Positions 1,164 through 8,198 of a stretch of DNA of 17,300 nt are shown here, one piece after another. The stretch's first letter is position 1; each line of letters begins with the position of its first letter. The notes beneath the pieces were generated by a model that saw only the letters and a program-made list of their open reading frames with translations, had not been told where the DNA came from and made no database searches. A program made the translations under genes and the position numbers. The DNA comes from a virus (taxonomy: Duplodnaviria; Heunggongvirae; Uroviricota; Caudoviricetes), in the IMG/VR virus record IMGVR_UViG_3300044678_002996, positions 1 through 17,300 of that record; one strand, 5' to 3'.

Positions 1164-1621
1164 TATCGCCCTTTCGTATAGGCCAAATTGCTGAATATCT
1201 TAACCATGTAGTCTACCTTATCTACCACCCCGTCCATGGAGTCTATAACTGCCCTAAGCTTTACCATTTCCGTTTGCATCTTCTCGATGTTGGAATGCTC
1301 TGCCGCCGCAGACGCTGTGATCAAGTCCTTGCCCAGAAACTCGTTATAGGAGTGGTAGACCTTAATTAGGGCTCTGTTGAATAGCATTGAGTTGGCATCA
1401 TAGAAGCTCTTAAGCAGGTTAATTCTCTTGTGAATGGAGATAGAGTACCTCGTAAGAATATACTGGGCCGCTATGCAGTCTTCCTTGGACATCGCCCGCA
1501 ATTCATCTTCTGGTAAGTTGAGGTAGTACTCATAGTCCGTATCTACGTGGTCGACCTTAGCGACCCCAATCATTGTGTCATTTTCGGCGATTACTTGTTC
1601 AATCTCTTTAGTTAGTGTCAT
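1163..1621 (-). CDS. Alpha-helical protein, possible UvsY-like recombination mediator
   Basis: Start moved to ATG 1621 (ATGA overlap with upstream stop, AGAGG upstream), giving 152 aa. Helical/coiled-coil pattern and size are similar to UvsY and it lies close to UvsX. The CDS is secure; the function is inference. Confidence 0.5.
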   Translation of the reverse strand: MTLTKEIEQVIAENDTMIGVAKVDHVDTDYEYYLNLPEDELRAMSKEDCIAAQYILTRYSISIHKRINLLKSFYDANSMLFNRALIKVYHSYNEFLGKDLITASAAAEHSNIEKMQTEMVKLRAVIDSMDGVVDKVDYMVKIFSNLAYTKGR

Positions 1622-2016
1622 TGTACCTCTTTGATTATATTGGGCCAATCGTCTACCTTGTCAAAAGGTAATTCGATGAATATGATGTCGTTGAGTTCGC
1701 ACCAGTCTTTTTTCTTCTGGTCGCGTAGCTGTGATTTCTTGAACCCAGCCTTAGTCTTGTGGAATCGCTTCACAAACTTATAGTGCTGTTCACCGTGTAC
1801 TTCAATTAGGATCGACAGATCCGGAATGAAAAAATCAGCTATTAGACCAGTGCCCAATAGCTGTACTTCTTCGTAGATGGTTGAGAATGGAAACCGTGAT
1901 TTCAGTAGCTTTCTGGCGGACAAATGCAATCCACTAGGGGAGCTAGAATCCTTACAAATCTTCTTAAAGTTGAAGATATGTTCCTTGCCATCAAAATCAA
2001 TAAACCTAATGGACAT
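1618..2016 (-). CDS. PD-(D/E)XK endonuclease, Vsr/DUF559-like
   Basis: Motifs EE...ADFF...IEVHGEQH...RDQKKKDWCELNDIIFIEL typical of Vsr/DUF559-type nucleases. Confidence 0.8.
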   Translation of the reverse strand: MSIRFIDFDGKEHIFNFKKICKDSSSPSGLHLSARKLLKSRFPFSTIYEEVQLLGTGLIADFFIPDLSILIEVHGEQHYKFVKRFHKTKAGFKKSQLRDQKKKDWCELNDIIFIELPFDKVDDWPNIIKEVQ

Positions 2017-2179
2017 TTTCTTCCAATCGATCCATTACTCTGCGAAATACATTGGGGCACTTCGCGAAGTCATCCCAAGTAAGATTAAGAATTTCTTCCA
2101 TTTCTTCTTCAGATAAAACTCGCCCCATAATCAATGACTTAAGGCATTCCTTAAATTGTGGTTTTGTCCATGTACTCAT
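2006..2179 (-). CDS. Hypothetical protein (57 aa)
   Basis: ATG at 2179 preceded by GGAG-AATAAT. The ORF-track start at 2191 is a TTG overlapping this RBS. Confidence 0.65.
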   Translation of the reverse strand: MSTWTKPQFKECLKSLIMGRVLSEEEMEEILNLTWDDFAKCPNVFRRVMDRLEENVH

Positions 2180-2180
2180 A

Positions 2181-2660
2181 TTATTCTCCAAATACTTCTT
2201 TTACTGTTTTTAGCTTACTGATCTCAAGGCTCCACATATCTACCTTGCACACAAATGGGCCGTCCCTCGTACCGATTGGAACAAAGGTTGCCTCTTCGAA
2301 AAAGTCGCTCTTAAGCGCCGCCCCTAATTCCCACGCCTTCTTAAGATCCTTTTGAATCCTATAGAAGACGTAGGCGTCACTTCCGTGCTTTTTCTGGTAA
2401 TCAGAAACGGAAGCGGTATAATTAGGAAGAGGAGTATCCTTACAGCTTTTAGCTTTTACATCCACTTTTAGCGACTTATAAAGAACATCATAATGCTTTG
2501 TGTTCTTAAGTTCGCCCGCATATTTATGGAGGAAAAGCTCCTCTGCGAGGATACCGTACAATTTCCCATTTGTAGTGAAAGAGTAGATGTTAGTTTTTTG
2601 GATATCCGCCCGAGCCGCAGCCCTAGCTAAGATATCCTTATCTATTTCTACTTCTATCAT
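2181..2660 (-). CDS. PD-(D/E)XK restriction-endonuclease-like protein
   Basis: GILAEELF helix, YD...DVK catalytic pattern, DAYVF and AWELG segments characteristic of phage REase-fold nucleases. ATGA-coupled to UvsX. Confidence 0.7.
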   Translation of the reverse strand: MIEVEIDKDILARAAARADIQKTNIYSFTTNGKLYGILAEELFLHKYAGELKNTKHYDVLYKSLKVDVKAKSCKDTPLPNYTASVSDYQKKHGSDAYVFYRIQKDLKKAWELGAALKSDFFEEATFVPIGTRDGPFVCKVDMWSLEISKLKTVKEVFGE

Positions 2661-3751
2661 GCTACACTTTCCTCTAGTTCTGGGGGCACGAATTCAAAGC
2701 TTACGCCGTATGTATCGCTATAATGATTTTCTATCAGCTTTTGTAGATACTCTCTGTTTTCGCTAATAATTTCAATAGCGTTGTCCGCGCCCTGCACTTT
2801 CTTATCGATTTGGTCTGTTATGAATGTATACCAAGCTCCACCTCTAACAAGTAGCCCAATCTCTTCTAGAATTGGAAGTGCTTCTTTCGCCCACCACACA
2901 CCTTCACCGAACATGAAGTAATTGAGTATTTTCTTATCATTTTCTTTTGAGACATACGGGGCAAGTAATTTATTGTAGGGTAAATCCCACCGAGCTAATT
3001 GGCCAGCTAGTTCATCTTCGTCTTTAGCCATAGCGATACTTTCGCCGTTTAGATCAAGTTGTCTGTGCCGTGATTCAAGTACGATGTCTGCGTCATATTC
3101 AATACCATTACCACCCTTTGGCACTATTTTACCCATACCCATTGGGGAAGTGTCGACCATCATATGTTGAATGCCGACTAGAACACACCTATTCACTCGC
3201 AACAAGTTTCCGACCTTCTTACAAAAGTCTTCATTTAGCTTAGGGCCCATGTCTCTTCTGTCTGAACGAACGTTTGGGTCGTCAAGTGTATCTTGGCCGA
3301 CAATTCTTGAGAAAGAGTCAATAACAAACAAAGCTCCAGCATATTCTGGATTCTTCATCAGAGCTATAACTTCGCGGTAGATCTCTTCTCCGCTTAGAAT
3401 CTTTCCCTCTTTCGAACGTATCATGATGAAGTTAGGATTCTTAATGTCGAACCCTCTAACTTGAAAGTATTTGTACGCGTTAAGTCTGCATTCTGCGTCT
3501 ACAAAAACCACTTTTCTGCCTTGCTCCAATGCATTTTGTACAATTTGCATAGCAAGGCTTGTCTTGCCAACCTTTGGGCGAGATCTGATTAAGACGAATG
3601 ACCCTTCTGGAATTCCTCCGCCGAGTCTAAAGTCAATAGAGGGACTAGTGGGAATTACAGAGAGGTTAACGCACTGTTGCATTGCCTCTTCTGCTGTTGT
3701 AAAGATATTGTTGTCTGTTACTTTTTCTTTGGTTGCTTTTTTCTTAGCCAT
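2657..3751 (-). CDS. uvsX: RecA/UvsX-family recombinase
   Basis: LGGGIPEG, Walker A variant SRPKVGKTS, DAE catalytic Glu, Walker B FVIDS, PKGGNGIEYDAD, C-terminal GAWY; 364 aa. Confidence 0.93.
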   Translation of the reverse strand: MAKKKATKEKVTDNNIFTTAEEAMQQCVNLSVIPTSPSIDFRLGGGIPEGSFVLIRSRPKVGKTSLAMQIVQNALEQGRKVVFVDAECRLNAYKYFQVRGFDIKNPNFIMIRSKEGKILSGEEIYREVIALMKNPEYAGALFVIDSFSRIVGQDTLDDPNVRSDRRDMGPKLNEDFCKKVGNLLRVNRCVLVGIQHMMVDTSPMGMGKIVPKGGNGIEYDADIVLESRHRQLDLNGESIAMAKDEDELAGQLARWDLPYNKLLAPYVSKENDKKILNYFMFGEGVWWAKEALPILEEIGLLVRGGAWYTFITDQIDKKVQGADNAIEIISENREYLQKLIENHYSDTYGVSFEFVPPELEESVA

Positions 3752-3753
3752 TT

Positions 3754-4116
3754 TTACTCATCTAGTAGTGAGGGCTTTTTACCCTCTAGTTTACGGAACA
3801 ATGGTATTTCGGGGTCTATCTTTTCGACCACCTCTTGTTTTTTATCAGCTAATGCAACCCTCTTAAGACGCGACGCTTCCAGCTCAAACATATCGGGCAG
3901 CTTTTTAGCCGCCAATGAGAAGCACCACGTTTCCCTATTTATAACATTCGTTACAGCATCTTCGCCGTAAGTCCTTATGAACTTCGCCCCAAGCCTCATC
4001 TGCATTTGATATTTTGGTTTATACTCAGGAAGATTCCAAAATTTCGCAGGAAGCGTGACACTTTTCTTAAGATACTCTCGACGAATCATCTCTTCCGCTA
4101 TTCTGGTGATGTTCAA
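3754..4116 (-). CDS. Hypothetical protein (LPxKFWN motif) upstream of UvsX
   Basis: 120 aa from TTG at 4116 (alternative ATG 9 codons later). Gaps of 1-2 nt to both neighbours. Confidence 0.75.
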   Translation of the reverse strand: MNITRIAEEMIRREYLKKSVTLPAKFWNLPEYKPKYQMQMRLGAKFIRTYGEDAVTNVINRETWCFSLAAKKLPDMFELEASRLKRVALADKKQEVVEKIDPEIPLFRKLEGKKPSLLDE

Positions 4117-4117
4117 T

Positions 4118-4411
4118 TTAGTCTTTCTTTTGGTTTTTTCTACGGAAAATATGCGGGGCGTTTAGATTGTTGTTGGTAGTCTTTTTGGGGACATATTCCG
4201 ACATTGCTGTTGTAAGAGTCGCCCCAATCGTTTCTCCATTAGCTTTCAACCTAGCTGGCTCTTTAGCACGTTCTGCCCGCGCGGCTTTAATAAATTCCGC
4301 CGCTACTAGTTGGTCTAACCCAATCTCTTCAGAGATCTCTAGGGAGTTCTTATCCAGATTGGCTAGAATATACGCTTCGTCAGCTTTGTTTAGTTTTGTT
4401 CGTTTTTTCAT
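4118..4411 (-). CDS. Hypothetical protein with possible N-terminal HTH
   Basis: LNKADEAYILAN-LDKNSLEISEEIGLDQLVAAEFIK has an HTH-like pattern, followed by a basic low-complexity tail. Confidence 0.65.
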   Translation of the reverse strand: MKKRTKLNKADEAYILANLDKNSLEISEEIGLDQLVAAEFIKAARAERAKEPARLKANGETIGATLTTAMSEYVPKKTTNNNLNAPHIFRRKNQKKD

Positions 4412-4414
4412 TTT

Positions 4415-4618
4415 TTACCTTTTATGACATTCTATCATATCTTCGTCTACAAATTCGAAATAGTAATCGTCTGTACCGAATAGATTTGGATAACCTATGA
4501 ACTGGATTTCATTAAGGTGCCCACAAACACACTTGACCTTTAGGGTCATTAGGTCACCGTCTGTGTCTCTAGAAAAGGCGCAAATAGCTTTACACGCTTC
4601 GCACGTTATTGGTTGCAT
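4415..4618 (-). CDS. Small zinc-ribbon-like protein
   Basis: 67 aa, CEAC...CVCGH. Confidence 0.7.
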   Translation of the reverse strand: MQPITCEACKAICAFSRDTDGDLMTLKVKCVCGHLNEIQFIGYPNLFGTDDYYFEFVDEDMIECHKR

Positions 4619-4824
4619 TGTAATATCCTATCCATTGTTTGTTTCAGGGAATCGACGCATTCTTGATAAGTTTTCCCGCTTACTTCGAGTGTCTTATGCT
4701 TAAGGCCGCTTTCTTTTAATTGGGCTCGGTGGACACAATGTCCGCTTAATTCCCCAGTAGCGTCTACCGGGTAAATTGAAAATGAAATGTTTACGATAGC
4801 CTTATAGGGCCGATCATGATCCAT
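4606..4824 (-). CDS. Hypothetical protein
   Basis: 72 aa, TAATG-coupled start. Confidence 0.7.
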   Translation of the reverse strand: MDHDRPYKAIVNISFSIYPVDATGELSGHCVHRAQLKESGLKHKTLEVSGKTYQECVDSLKQTMDRILQCNQ

Positions 4825-5021
4825 TATCTATCCTTTCTGTGAACTAATTCAAATTCTTGAACTACATATTTCTTGGGCGATTTTTGACGAAGACTCGCCC
4901 TAGCTTTATTGGCATTTGACACATGGGTAAATAAACGGGCCTTATAAAGATGTGTAGTCCACTTAAACTTAGGAGTTAAGAAGTTTCCATTATCAGGATC
5001 TTGTACGGCCCATATATTCAT
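4824..5021 (-). CDS. Hypothetical basic protein
   Basis: 65 aa, TAATG-coupled at both ends. Confidence 0.7.
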   Translation of the reverse strand: MNIWAVQDPDNGNFLTPKFKWTTHLYKARLFTHVSNANKARASLRQKSPKKYVVQEFELVHRKDR

Positions 5022-5344
5022 TATAGTATTCCTCGTTCGATGTATCTCTTCTTCTGTTCTGGCGTAGCATTTGCTAGCTTTCTAACGTGGGTCTGTTTGG
5101 CCAATTTCTTTTCGGTATTTTCGCCCATCACTTTTTCACGCTCGTACTTATTTCTCTTATTGTTTTGCTCCATTAATTTTCCAATAGTACGCGGGCTCCC
5201 ATCTTTTGCTATTATAGCTGCTGATAGTAATCTTTCTATTGGTGATTTACAAACTGGACATTTTTTATATACCTCCTCGTGATTTTGAATAAATTCTATT
5301 TCTCCACATTTTTCGCACAAATATTCTTTTGTTACGTTTGCCAT
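5021..5344 (-). CDS. FmdB-like zinc-ribbon protein with basic helical C-terminus
   Basis: YLCEKCG...KCPVCK...IERLLS pattern of FmdB-type ribbons. AAGGAG RBS 5 nt upstream. Confidence 0.8.
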   Translation of the reverse strand: MANVTKEYLCEKCGEIEFIQNHEEVYKKCPVCKSPIERLLSAAIIAKDGSPRTIGKLMEQNNKRNKYEREKVMGENTEKKLAKQTHVRKLANATPEQKKRYIERGIL

Positions 5345-5457
5345 AATAGCTCCTTGTTATTTTTGTTATTTTTGTCAATAAAAGTTAAAAACTTTATGAA
5401 AATAGTGTAATATATAATAGGCGGGGTTTCGCCCTTTAAGTATGAATCGAGACAATA
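5345..5457. promoter_or_regulatory. Divergent AT-rich intergenic region: RBS of the zinc-ribbon gene, 9-bp tandem repeat, TATAAT -10-like box for the HNH gene
   Basis: AAGGAG on minus strand at 5355-5350; TTGTTATTT x2 (5354-5371) plus a partial third copy; TATAAT at 5413-5418 on plus strand with no canonical -35. The only sizeable non-coding gap in the window. Confidence 0.5.
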
Positions 5458-6354
5458 ATGAAAACATGTTGTAAATGTAAAAACGAAAGAGATTTTGAGT
5501 GTTTTGTAAAAAATAGTAGCTCAAAAGACGGGCGTTCTGGCCGGTGTAAACTATGTGACGCTATTTACAGAGAAAAAAATAAGGAACGCTCTAGTGTTTT
5601 AAGCAAACAATATAGGCTAAACAATAAAGAAAAGTCTAGTGAATATCACAAAGACTATGCCAAAACGCATAAAGATTGCATAAAAAAATATCAAAAAGAA
5701 TACGCTCAAAAGAACAAAGAAAAAATTAAAGATTATCAAAAAAAATACAGAGATGAAAATAGAGACACGATCAACGGGCAGATCAAGGAGTATTCTATAA
5801 AAAACAAAAATAAAATCAAGGAATACAAAACGCAATATTATTTGAAAAACAAAGCCCGTACGAAAGAAAAGCAAAGGGAGTATTATTTAAAAAACAAAGA
5901 AAATATCGAAAATAAAAGTAAAATATACAGAGTGATAAATCAAGGTAAGATTAGAAGTCGCCGGAAAAATTATCTTGAATCTAACCCTGATGCCAAGCTA
6001 AGCAAAGCACTTAGATGTAGGATTAGAATGGCACTCAAAGTAAGAAATTGTAAAAAATCAGATTCTACGTATAATTTATTAGGGTGTTCTAAAAAATTCT
6101 TTCAAGACTATATAGTCTCAAAATTCACTAAAGGTATGACCCTAGAGAATAATTCTGTAGATGGATGGCACCTCGACCATATTGTCCCATGCGCGTCTTT
6201 TGATTTAAGTGACCCAGATCAGCAAAAATTGTGTTTTCATTATACAAATTATCAACCACTCTGGGCCACTAAAGAAATCGCTATGAGGCACGGTGAAAAC
6301 AGTAACTATATAGGCAATTTAGAAAAGGGCAGTCGTATGTTTTTACAACAATAG
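5458..6354 (+). CDS. Free-standing HNH homing-endonuclease-like protein
   Basis: N-terminal CxxC...CxxC finger, long K/Y/N repeat region, C-terminal LLGCS...GWHLDHIVPCASFDL...CFHYTNYQPLWA...NLEKG nuclease domain. Only gene on the + strand, strongly A-rich. Confidence 0.88.
   Translation: MKTCCKCKNERDFECFVKNSSSKDGRSGRCKLCDAIYREKNKERSSVLSKQYRLNNKEKSSEYHKDYAKTHKDCIKKYQKEYAQKNKEKIKDYQKKYRDENRDTINGQIKEYSIKNKNKIKEYKTQYYLKNKARTKEKQREYYLKNKENIENKSKIYRVINQGKIRSRRKNYLESNPDAKLSKALRCRIRMALKVRNCKKSDSTYNLLGCSKKFFQDYIVSKFTKGMTLENNSVDGWHLDHIVPCASFDLSDPDQQKLCFHYTNYQPLWATKEIAMRHGENSNYIGNLEKGSRMFLQQ
5581..5985 (+). repeat. Nine degenerate 15-aa (45-nt) tandem repeats in the HNH protein
   Basis: KERSSVLSKQYRLNN/KEKSSEYHKDYAKTH/KDCIKKYQKEYAQKN/KEKIKDYQKKYRDEN/RDTINGQIKEYSIKN/KNKIKEYKTQYYLKN/KARTKEKQREYYLKN/KENIENKSKIYRVIN/QGKIRSRRKNYLESN, with Tyr at position 11 in all nine and Asn at 15 in eight. 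Confidence 0.85.
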
Positions 6355-6358
6355 CCAT
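6281..6358 (-). pseudogene. Relict 5' end of the zinc-ribbon gene (MAIVVKTYDC..., stops after 25 codons)
   Basis: ATG overlaps the MazG-like gene stop (TAATG 6360-6356). The first 10 codons (6358-6329) match the N-terminus of 5021..5344 at 6/10 aa. Confidence 0.55.
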
Positions 6359-6798
6359 TATGATTTTGCTTTTTCTATTAGGTCTTTAAGTTCCACTGGT
6401 TTGTATCCCGGTGGTTTTAACATCTTGCCGTCTTCACGCCACACAGCGCCCGGCCCAACCTTTGTTAGATTATTCTGATCAACCCGCTCAAGGGCTTCTT
6501 CAAAAACATATTGCAAACCACAAGAAATCAGTGTCCCATTCGTTACGACGGCTAAATCACACGCTCCGTCTAGCACCTTTTCTGGGCTATAGTTTTCTGC
6601 CCCAGCATCAATGAATTTGCCAAGTACGAAATCTACCCCAAGTGCTTCAATGGTTTCGAGCGCTTCTTCGTAAATTAGCTTCGCCCGCAGAATTCTCTCT
6701 TCTGGTGTAGGGACTCTTAGAGATTTTGCAACAGTTTGTTTTGCCCCGAGCATTAGCCCTTCGATAGCCCAAATGTGTTCTTCTAGTGAGTATGTCAT
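6358..6798 (-). CDS. MazG-like / PRA-PH family nucleoside triphosphate pyrophosphohydrolase (DR2231-like, possible dUTPase)
   Basis: LIYEEALET, LDGACDL, NNLTK and REDGKMLKP motifs. Confidence 0.85.
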   Translation of the reverse strand: MTYSLEEHIWAIEGLMLGAKQTVAKSLRVPTPEERILRAKLIYEEALETIEALGVDFVLGKFIDAGAENYSPEKVLDGACDLAVVTNGTLISCGLQYVFEEALERVDQNNLTKVGPGAVWREDGKMLKPPGYKPVELKDLIEKAKS

Positions 6799-6995
6799 TT
6801 TAGCTTAGTGTATTCCTTAATTAAACTATTAACCTTTTCGCCAAACACATCGCTGGTTTGGTCTACTCGCAATAACAAAATAGACTGAATAAACTTTTCA
6901 AATCCATTATCCATTCTTTGGTTAACTTGTAGTTTGATTTCAGTTACTACTTCATCCAGCAATTCTTTCTTTTTGGTTTGAATTTTTTCACTCAT
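6795..6995 (-). CDS. Hypothetical helical protein
   Basis: 66 aa, ATGA-coupled at both ends. Confidence 0.7.
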   Translation of the reverse strand: MSEKIQTKKKELLDEVVTEIKLQVNQRMDNGFEKFIQSILLLRVDQTSDVFGEKVNSLIKEYTKLK

Positions 6996-7408
6996 TTTGC
7001 AACATACCTCGTCCCGTCAATAATTAGCGATTTAATGGTTCTATGGTCTACTTGGCGGATGCGGTCAGACTGCTTCTTATCCAAGTCCTCTACCTGAGAT
7101 CGCCCGTCTGTCGTCTCAGAGTCTTTACACAATCTACCACGCAGAGTGCGAAGTTTGCCGTCCTTCTTAACAAAGACGACGGTAAAAGGGGTGTCTCCAG
7201 CAGAGATAAGCTTCTCAACAATTTCAGTGCGGTTCATATTATATGAAACACTGAACGCGTCAGATGACTTAAATGCGGTCCTGATACCAGTGCCTTTGAT
7301 CTTAAACTTTTTCTCAGAGTCAAGATCCATAGCTAGGATGGTGTCCCCATCATCTTCCAAAACTTTAGCATATTTAGTGAACGCAACAATTTCATAAACT
7401 TCACTCAT
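6992..7408 (-). CDS. SH3-like / WYL-like beta-barrel protein
   Basis: Start moved to ATG 7408 (GGAG upstream), giving 138 aa. C-terminal FTVVFVKKDGKLRTLRG...RQVDHRTIKSLIIDG resembles phage WYL-like SH3 folds. Confidence 0.6.
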   Translation of the reverse strand: MSEVYEIVAFTKYAKVLEDDGDTILAMDLDSEKKFKIKGTGIRTAFKSSDAFSVSYNMNRTEIVEKLISAGDTPFTVVFVKKDGKLRTLRGRLCKDSETTDGRSQVEDLDKKQSDRIRQVDHRTIKSLIIDGTRYVAK

Positions 7409-7562
7409 CTTTATCTCCATTTTCTTCTCGAAAAATTTCACAAGCGTAACTGTAACCTTCCCAATTATCCACTCCAGCCCCCTGAAGTGCCTCTAGGAAT
7501 AGGGAATCTTCTAAGAGAGACTCGTACTCTTCTTTACTTATTACAACAGTTTCTTCGTCCAT
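7401..7562 (-). CDS. Small acidic phage protein with GVDNWEGY motif (53 aa)
   Basis: ATG at 7562 preceded by GAGG. VVISKEEYESL...LEALQGAGVDNWEGY is a pattern recalled from diverse phage hypothetical proteins. Confidence 0.75.
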   Translation of the reverse strand: MDEETVVISKEEYESLLEDSLFLEALQGAGVDNWEGYSYACEIFREENGDKDE

Positions 7563-7569
7563 TTTGCCC

Positions 7570-7965
7570 TCAAAACTTATAGGTTTTCTTGGCCGGAGGG
7601 GCCCCTGCGACCCCTTTAAAATCCGCGCCCACAATCAATTTTTCCTTAGCCCCCTTGGGGAGAGCGTACGCCCCGCCCCCAAACTCAATGATTTTTTCAA
7701 CATAATCATCAAATCTCTTCATGGCGTCCTTCATAGCATCGCCATTGTACTTCTTGCCGAACTTATTGGTTTTGACGTTATCACAACCCCTTATATCATC
7801 CCAGTAAACTGGGATTTCTTGGTAAGGCTTATTAGTTTCTTTGCAGAATCGTTTTACTAGAGCGTGAGAGACAGACACTATCTCGGTACACTCTAGGGCT
7901 GACAATTGCCTGTGAAGAAAACCGTAGTCGTCAAAACCCCGCCCAACACTTACTCCGAGTATCAT
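7570..7965 (-). CDS. Degenerate YspA/DUF2493-like SLOG-fold protein
   Basis: MILGVSVGRGFDDY...EIVS...YWDD...KFGKKYN follows the DUF2493 outline but lacks the GGAxGAD and AGxxRN motifs. Confidence 0.6.
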   Translation of the reverse strand: MILGVSVGRGFDDYGFLHRQLSALECTEIVSVSHALVKRFCKETNKPYQEIPVYWDDIRGCDNVKTNKFGKKYNGDAMKDAMKRFDDYVEKIIEFGGGAYALPKGAKEKLIVGADFKGVAGAPPAKKTYKF

Positions 7966-8198
7966 GTCTTCCCTTCTAAAAAGGCTATAAGCTCTTCAGA
8001 GCAGGAAACACATACATGATATGCTTTGTAAGAATCGTAATAATTGATAAACACTCCGTCGTGTGCGAGTGGATAGTTAGTCGCGTTTGTTCGTGAGGAA
8101 AGAGGAACATCTGTCCTACTAATGCGAAACATACCTTCGACGGGAATAATTGTTTTTTTACACTTGTCACACGTACATACAATTGTTGTTTCTATCAT
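7962..8198 (-). CDS. Small CxxC...CxxC zinc-binding protein
   Basis: CDKC...CVSC-SEELIAFL; ATGA-coupled at both ends. Confidence 0.75.
   Translation of the reverse strand: MIETTIVCTCDKCKKTIIPVEGMFRISRTDVPLSSRTNATNYPLAHDGVFINYYDSYKAYHVCVSCSEELIAFLEGKT

Follow-up and report, generated by a model that had tools for sequence, protein, structure and literature searches.

A probable homing-endonuclease cassette that rebuilds the 5' end of the zinc-ribbon gene it interrupts in an uncultured phage

Free-standing homing endonuclease genes of the T4 type (SegF, SegG, SegB and MobE) move by 'intronless homing': markers flanking the nuclease gene are co-converted and the ends of the converted tract vary. 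To our knowledge, they are intergenic, and no fragment of a gene is duplicated beside them. Here we describe a locus in the first 17.3 kilobases (kb; 17,300 nucleotides, called the window in the following) of the 81.3-kb uncultured virus record IMGVR_UViG_3300044678_002996 (Caudoviricetes), at which an inverted gene for an HNH nuclease stands within the coding sequence of a gene for a small zinc-ribbon protein. The first 33 bases of the native gene lie on one side of the nuclease gene, and a foreign, in-frame 5' end lies on the other. The locus is likely a mobile homing-endonuclease cassette that rebuilds the 5' end of the gene it interrupts.

The principle of a homing element that brings a replacement gene end has already been published for yeast and for fungal mitochondria. 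In the yeasts Torulaspora and Lachancea, WHO elements occupy the FBA1 gene; in the published model, the sensitive allele is cut by the nuclease, and its repair brings in the element along with a gene end that confers resistance (Coughlan et al. 2020, PMC7282813). The displaced native end is described as a non-functional fragment beside the element, with a proposed role as homology arm. Fungal mitochondrial genomes carry mORF 'gene hybrids', in atp6 of Allomyces macrogynus and in atp6, atp9, cox2 and nad3 of Glomus (PMC3630166, citing Paquin et al. 1994). A phage case of a different kind is Aeromonas phage Aeh1, where mobE splits nrdA; both parts are expressed and come together again at the protein level (Friedrich et al. 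2007, cited in PMC10448857 and PMC8351571). Free-standing homing endonucleases of T4-type phages are cited in PMC2330249, PMC2790892 and PMC8351571.

Empty and filled sites in related phages

In the contigs L006-L010, L011 and L038, the stop of the MazG-like gene is directly followed by MAIVVKTYDCPKCG and there is no HNH gene; in L006-L011 the gene order is that of the window minus the nuclease gene. This is the continuous, TAATG-coupled gene that an earlier note on this DNA, made from the letters alone, had predicted for relatives without the nuclease. In blastn alignments, window positions 7965..6326 correspond to positions 2394..4033 of L006 and window positions 5311..1300 to positions 4034..8051, a clean insertion of 1014 bases after base 33 of the gene. 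The empty form also occurs in run X5, an unrelated metagenome of a biofilm, where a contig joins window position 6326 to 5173 via 138 other bases. The window and L035/L036 are filled, and the locus is therefore polymorphic for presence and absence of the nuclease gene. Contigs of two other lake-water studies span both junctions of the filled form with 0 differences, indicating that the filled arrangement is not an assembly artefact.

The relict of the native start is identical at 33/33 positions to the intact zinc-ribbon gene starts of the five nuclease-free contigs L006-L010, and the identity ends after TGCCCT. Within the 81-kb record it is the sole remnant of bases 1-171 of the native allele (allele A). 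Thus, the resemblance between the relict start and the intact start MANVTKEYLC at position 5344 (6/10 residues alike) is not due to chance. The earlier note had recognised the relict but let the similarity end at the first Cys; it runs on through Cys10 and Pro11 to base 33. The ATG of the relict overlaps the stop of the MazG-like gene as TAATG. At its other end, the last five bases (GCCCT, 6330..6326) are common to the relict and the NLEKG codons of the nuclease, so that the exact junction lies somewhere in bases 28-33.

The foreign tract occupies positions 5174..6325: 1152 bases, consisting of the inverted HNH gene, a 113-base spacer with the ribosome site AAGGAG and bases 1-171 of a different allele of the gene (allele B), stand in place of 138 native bases. 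A diverged 5' end with its own ribosome site thus does restore the target gene, as had been proposed, but the import is not limited to about ten codons and takes in 57. When the genes are aligned base by base, bases 1-171 of allele B are 59.4% identical to allele A of L006, and 97-98% identical to the counterparts in L035 and L017. The 3' part of the window gene is 96.8% identical to L006 and 86.4% to L035. Base composition follows the same borders: the G+C content is 32.0% in the HNH gene and 32.7% in allele B, versus 44.4% in the native 5' counterpart and 44.7% in the MazG-like gene. All sequence details of the earlier note (coordinates, TAATG, 6/10 amino acids, AAGGAG, antisense tail) were correct on recheck, and its hand counts of G+C were exact (16/60 at 5281-5340, 27/60 at 5041-5100).

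The same cassette is found in a different backbone. L035 and L036 carry a nuclease (P0016) that is 98% identical to the one of the window. In the backbone, the window and L035 are only 79.8% identical in the MazG-like gene and 80.0% in the downstream genes, whereas the cassette reaches 98.4% in the nuclease gene, 95.5% in the spacer and 97.1% in allele B. In comparison with empty-site contigs, L035 is 99.8% identical to L011 in the MazG-like gene and 100% in the downstream genes, and the flanks of the window are 94-98% identical to L006, with 93.8% for the MazG-like gene. On the right, the switch to the backbone type lies at about base 171-180 of the gene in the window and at about base 230 in L035. 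Left of the junction, L035 and L011 have 4 differences over about 45 bases, starting 12 bases before the ATG of the relict. These different tract ends indicate that the window and L035 received the cassette in separate transfers with different conversion tracts.

Older copies are present in at least three more backbones (listed are L012/L013 with 24 contigs, L014-L016, L049 and the contig of P0009), each with the nuclease gene, a homologous spacer and allele B. For L012/L013 and L014-L016, identity to the window is 62-69% in the flanks, 79-82% in the nuclease and 85-91% in allele B. In L012 and L014, the two older backbones with readable junctions, a decayed relict occupies the same junction: it reads MATVTKNYD with a 3-base deletion in L012, and MATVIKAY followed by a stop at codon 9 in L014, where it is TAATG-coupled too, but to a different upstream gene. 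The relict comparison covers these two backbones; L049 and the P0009 contig contribute the pairing of HNH gene and allele B. In the window, a frame of 25 codons is still open from the relict ATG, probably as a translated by-product.

Two further observations concern the surroundings of these older copies. Between the MazG-like gene and the relict of L014 (positions 1743-1871) lies an open reading frame for a mini zinc-ribbon protein of 42 amino acids with two CxxC pairs, and this frame is the one that is TAATG-coupled to the relict; the upstream neighbour of the zinc-ribbon gene thus differs among backbones. In L012 (positions 1-1240), the product of the PhoH gene has 609 amino acids with matches to the Pfam families Hom_end and LAGLIDADG_3, which suggests that this PhoH holds an intein with a homing endonuclease and that a second kind of selfish element is present in the same gene block.

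The best public-run matches to the record are lake-water metagenomes. Searches of GenBank phages, by megablast with the region and by tblastn with the zinc-ribbon protein, returned no matches, and scans of IMG/VR with the zinc-ribbon and MazG proteins returned only distant or irrelevant loci (L004, for example, is a gp32-like gene). The surrounding genes are read from the minus strand, with tight coupling between them; the features of the locus are listed in Table 1.

Table 1. Positions of the cassette, the interrupted gene and the upstream neighbour in the window
Feature	Position	Strand	Basis or remark
MazG-like nucleotide pyrophosphohydrolase gene, 146 amino acids	6798..6358	-	open reading frame list, translation; upstream neighbour of the relict
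Relict: original zinc-ribbon gene start (allele A, bases 1-33, MAIVVKTYDCP), displaced	6358..6326	-	33/33 match to L006-L010
25-codon frame from the relict ATG (11 native and 14 junk codons antisense to HNH, then stop)	6358..6281	-	direct reading
HNH (His-Me finger, 'endonuclease VII'-type) nuclease gene, 298 amino acids	5458..6354	+	inverted relative to the operon; translation, PHROG, model
Cassette spacer, 113 bases, between the divergent HNH and zinc-ribbon starts	5457..5345	-	alignment of five cassettes
Terminator-like hairpin in the spacer	5434..5419	- (operon strand)	pattern scan only
Conserved ATTATATATTACAC block in the spacer	5418..5405	-	
TTGACA in the spacer	5378..5373	-	
AAGGAG ribosome site in the spacer	5355..5350	-	
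Zinc-ribbon gene, chimeric protein of 107 amino acids	5344..5021	-	starts MANVTKEYLC
Imported allele B 5' part, codons 1-57, whole Cys4 domain	5344..5174	-	in frame with the native remainder
Native (backbone-type) 3' part of the zinc-ribbon gene	5173..5021	-	homology with the empty-site contig resumes at 5173

Nuclease, spacer and chimeric gene

The nuclease consists of an N-terminal Cys4 finger, a long helical region with KxY..NKEK repeats and a C-terminal HNH core. It matches PHROG 1035 ('endonuclease VII') with E 7e-15, and its homologues in GenBank phages, at most 37% identical, are annotated as HNH endonuclease or endonuclease VII; a scan of IMG/VR with the protein returned homologues of at most 45% identity, at other loci only. 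The motif HLDH is at residues 238-241: D240, H241 and N264 are invariant in 62 homologues, and K290 of NLEK is conserved in at least 90%. The AF2 model (pLDDT 93.4, with the last five residues below 50) shows the finger, then repeated helices over about 160 residues, then a C-terminal beta-beta-alpha core; strands lie at 237-241 and 265-269, and the helices that follow include one at 287-293. Fold matches in BFVD include proteins named HNH endonuclease or HNHc (E about 3e-9), while the best match is unnamed (E 2.8e-13).

The C-terminus of the nuclease reads NLEKGSRMFLQQ (longer form ...GNLEKGSRMFLQQ) and is encoded by the antisense of the relict: the last nine codons, namely the Gly of NLEKG, SRMFLQQ and the stop, lie on it, with the Gly also belonging to the nuclease's own end. 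Among 120 homologues, the end varies from 0 to 12 residues after the conserved GNLEKG. The 98%-identical copy ends in GSHMSLQQ, read from its own relict; the tail is GHSF in L012, GNSNKL in L014 and SDKII in the paralogue of the same record. The tail of the nuclease thus depends on what is encoded antisense to the relict. Conservation of SRMFLQQ at unrelated loci, which the earlier note had named as evidence for a chance match, was not found in the family.

Residues ~40-195 of the nuclease (window positions ~5575-6042) form about ten tandem helical repeats of 14-15 residues each (K.Y...NKEK......), modelled as a long array with pLDDT >90; HNH proteins of giant viruses and phages in BFVD have them too. 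This array is likely to be a modular DNA-binding region.

The same record contains a paralogous HNH gene (G000:C1:44955-45752; L003:1501-2304), whose product of 267 amino acids is 45% identical. It is likewise inverted in a minus-strand operon, between genes for proteins of 247 and 220 amino acids; its stop overlaps the end of the upstream gene by 8 bases, and its upstream spacer has a TATATTACAC block in common with the cassette spacer. No similarity to the start of the downstream gene, and hence no relict, was detected beside the paralogous gene.

Two blocks of the cassette spacer, ATTATATATTACAC (5405-5418) and TTGACAAAAATAA (5373-5378), are kept in all cassette spacers, including those of L035, L012 and L014, and persist in reduced form even at L037, where the HNH gene is 56% identical. 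Their probable role is that of promoter elements, pointing in opposite directions, from which the nuclease gene and the rebuilt gene are transcribed. The window and L035 also have the terminator-like hairpin (GGGCG...CGCC, then ATTATATATT), which L012 and L014 lack; transcripts of the operon that have passed antisense through the nuclease gene might end there.

A search of 5.8 billion proteins gave 12 homologues of the zinc-ribbon protein. P0008 and P0010, which come from the contigs L006-L011, begin with MAIVVKTYDCPKCG, and P0008 equals the window protein from about residue 57 onward. None of the residues that are invariant in the family is lost from the chimeric protein; C10, C13, C29 and C32 are invariant in 13 homologues. 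Its score against Pfam Zn_ribbon_8 (FmdB-type, PF09723) is 26.7 bits (E 5.5e-6), below the cut-off of 34.4. The upstream neighbour matches PHROG 671 (nucleotide pyrophosphohydrolase) with E 9e-22.

Proposed mechanism and alternative explanations

The mobile unit would consist of the inverted HNH gene, the spacer with its ribosome site and probable promoters, and the foreign first 171 bases; it would sit after base 28-33 of the resident gene and leave a dead 33-base relict coupled to the stop of the MazG-like gene. In a mixed infection, the nuclease would cut the unoccupied allele A near the CPKC codons, and the break would be repaired from the occupied genome, with the end of the MazG-like gene and the relict as left homology arm. 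On the right side, native bases 34-171 are probably too diverged to pair (59% over bases 1-171), and because of this, repair would have to extend to the conserved 3' half of the gene. The recipient would thereby acquire the nuclease gene together with the spacer and allele B. The result would be a full-length chimeric gene with a 5' half that differs from the cut allele at about 40% of positions, which would probably protect it from being cut. Across base 33, the sequence of allele A is intact neither in the relict, where the right half is replaced, nor in allele B, which at the junction differs from allele A at 6/18 bases on the left and at 3/14 on the right. The founding insertion probably took two joins, a homologous one on the right and, at the 3' end of the nuclease gene, one by microhomology (GCCCT).

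Several points weigh against a homing cassette with its own promoters. Pfam has no HNH model that matches the nuclease, even at E 10, and searches of solved structures by sequence and fold gave nothing clear. Sequence searches of the Protein Data Bank (PDB) with the protein and with a 62-sequence profile returned weak rows only, namely ribosomal proteins and Hpy99I (E 0.44); Foldseek found nothing in the PDB at E <=0.001, with weak rows (E 0.9-3.2) that include the His-Me finger nucleases NucA, EXOG and Gme HNH; and the PDB representatives that VIA-align matched to the whole protein were all coiled coils resembling the helical repeat. These PDB searches are uninformative because the helical repeat dominates the matching. 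In the spacer, a sigma-70 pattern scan did not call the conserved blocks as promoter, and the promoter assignment has these blocks as its only basis. Furthermore, general phage recombination with the nuclease as passenger could have moved the block, and there are related phages in which allele B occurs without the nuclease gene (L017/L018) or the nuclease gene without a relict (L037). The last three points lead to the alternatives that have to be weighed.

According to the first of these, the locus is an ordinary recombination mosaic: the HNH gene is a passenger that does not target the locus, and the relict is the inherited scar of one illegitimate event. This is improbable. In its favour, cleavage by the nuclease is a prediction, a neighbouring gene encodes the phage's own RecA/UvsX-type recombinase (Pfam RecA_N), and HNH paralogues stand at other loci without relicts. 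Against it, the limits of the exchanged block agree with those of the nuclease gene in all backbones, and identity is 97-98% within the block as opposed to about 80% in the flanks. There were at least two events with different right ends and the same left junction, and allele B always accompanies this nuclease gene except in L017/L018.

This exception is the basis of a second alternative, to which we give an even smaller chance: allele B with its own ribosome site would be ancestral in a sub-lineage, the HNH gene would have entered the short spacer and the relict would have arisen later via recombination with allele A. In L017/L018, the MazG stop is followed by 13 bases that contain AAGGAA (ribosome site) and then by MANVTKEY, with no HNH gene, which is the arrangement that the earlier note had set against its own insertion reading. 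The arrangement does exist, yet it looks secondary by its backbone and by a spacer remnant. The backbone of L017 is 91% identical to L011 and places it among the allele-A phages, but over bases 1-171 its identity to L011 drops to 60%, as against 98.8% to L035; the allele-B tract of L017/L018 is 98-99% identical to the cassette-borne ones. The 10 bases that precede the ATG, with the ribosome site (AAGGAACCAT), match the 10 with which the L035 spacer ends (AAGGAGCCAT), and the right switch is at the same place as in L035. In all nuclease-free relatives at a greater distance, the coupling is tight and no spacer is present. Given this allele-A backbone, the L035-like bases 1-171, the spacer remnant and the spacer-less distant relatives, L017/L018 are best read as phages that once had the cassette and have since lost both the relict and the nuclease gene.

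L037 also fits an ancestral intergenic arrangement: here, an HNH gene of 56% identity stands upstream of the zinc-ribbon gene, with a spacer that is homologous in part, and no relict is visible. The relict is thus not obligatory for this nuclease lineage, and L037 may represent an older, purely intergenic state.

Finally, two homologous starts about 1 kb apart could have arisen by tandem duplication of the gene start in place, followed by divergence and landing of a nuclease between the copies, but we reject this as hardly credible, since the upstream copy is identical to native alleles at 33/33 positions while the downstream copy has 59% identity over 170 bases, a different G+C content and 97-99% identity to copies in other backbones.

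Comparison with known homing elements

A mobile cassette that rebuilds the 5' end of its target would mean that a free-standing homing endonuclease can occupy coding sequence without intron, intein or gene splitting, by supplying a diverged but working replacement end. It explains why half of a small conserved gene has 59% identity between phages that are 94-98% identical elsewhere, and it is relevant for phage phylogeny, pangenome clustering and gene calling; annotation is affected because mistakes are easily made with the chimeric gene and with the 25-codon frame of the relict. Among close relatives the site is empty, filled, or filled and then cleaned up: if true, one small clade of lake phages displays the full cycle of a homing element in natural sequences. 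The near-isogenic pair of empty L011 and filled L035, together with L017, which appears to have lost the nuclease gene, is a ready experimental system.

A literature search found no phage paper on a homing endonuclease beside which part of the target gene is duplicated; broader results were reviews and the fungal and yeast cases. With T4-type intronless homing, the locus shares a free-standing nuclease gene in a phage, presence/absence polymorphism, a target in the neighbouring gene and co-conversion, with the nuclease and adjacent markers 97-98% identical versus about 80% in the backbone and with variable tract ends. Unlike T4-type genes, the cassette stands inside coding sequence and brings a substitute start. 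The Aeh1 case is similar in that an HNH-type homing gene of a phage lies within coding sequence and the host function is kept; unlike nrdA, the zinc-ribbon gene is not split: its 5' part is replaced and the old start discarded.

The traits of replacement-end elements are present in the cassette: a foreign end in frame, a full-length chimera and a displaced native end kept beside the nuclease gene. In mORF hybrids, too, the endonuclease reading frame enters with a foreign gene end, the native end is left and is near-identical to the one of an element-free relative, and the inserted end is more diverged (63.5% nucleotide identity in Glomus atp6); in contrast to the phage locus, these hybrids have LAGLIDADG or GIY-YIG nucleases, replace the carboxy-terminal end, are often fused in frame with the host gene and reside in organelle genomes (PMC3630166).

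WHO elements share these features with the locus: the homing endonuclease gene carries a replacement end for its target, the displaced native end stays adjacent, the divergence of the target is sharply discordant on either side of one position, and elements and fragments later decay or go. For WHO elements the chimeric gene is resistant and cleavage was shown experimentally, whereas here we infer both from sequence. WHO nucleases are intein-like, replace the 3' end and act in the meiosis of diploid eukaryotes; here the nuclease is of the HNH type, the 5' end is replaced and the host is a phage. Moreover, and again unlike WHO, the cassette has an inverted position in a phage operon, where it must provide the rebuilt gene with a ribosome site and probably with a promoter.

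The cassette thus appears to work like WHO and mORF elements while being, as an HNH-type element that replaces a 5' end, a member of neither family. We lean slightly towards regarding it as the 5'-end mirror of their strategy: an inverted HNH cassette with its own expression signals and a recoded first domain, for which the discarded start would serve as left homology arm, the junction at base 28-33 would mark the cut site, and clean later excision would leave a resistant allele behind, so that the clade would show a cycle of invasion, persistence and loss.

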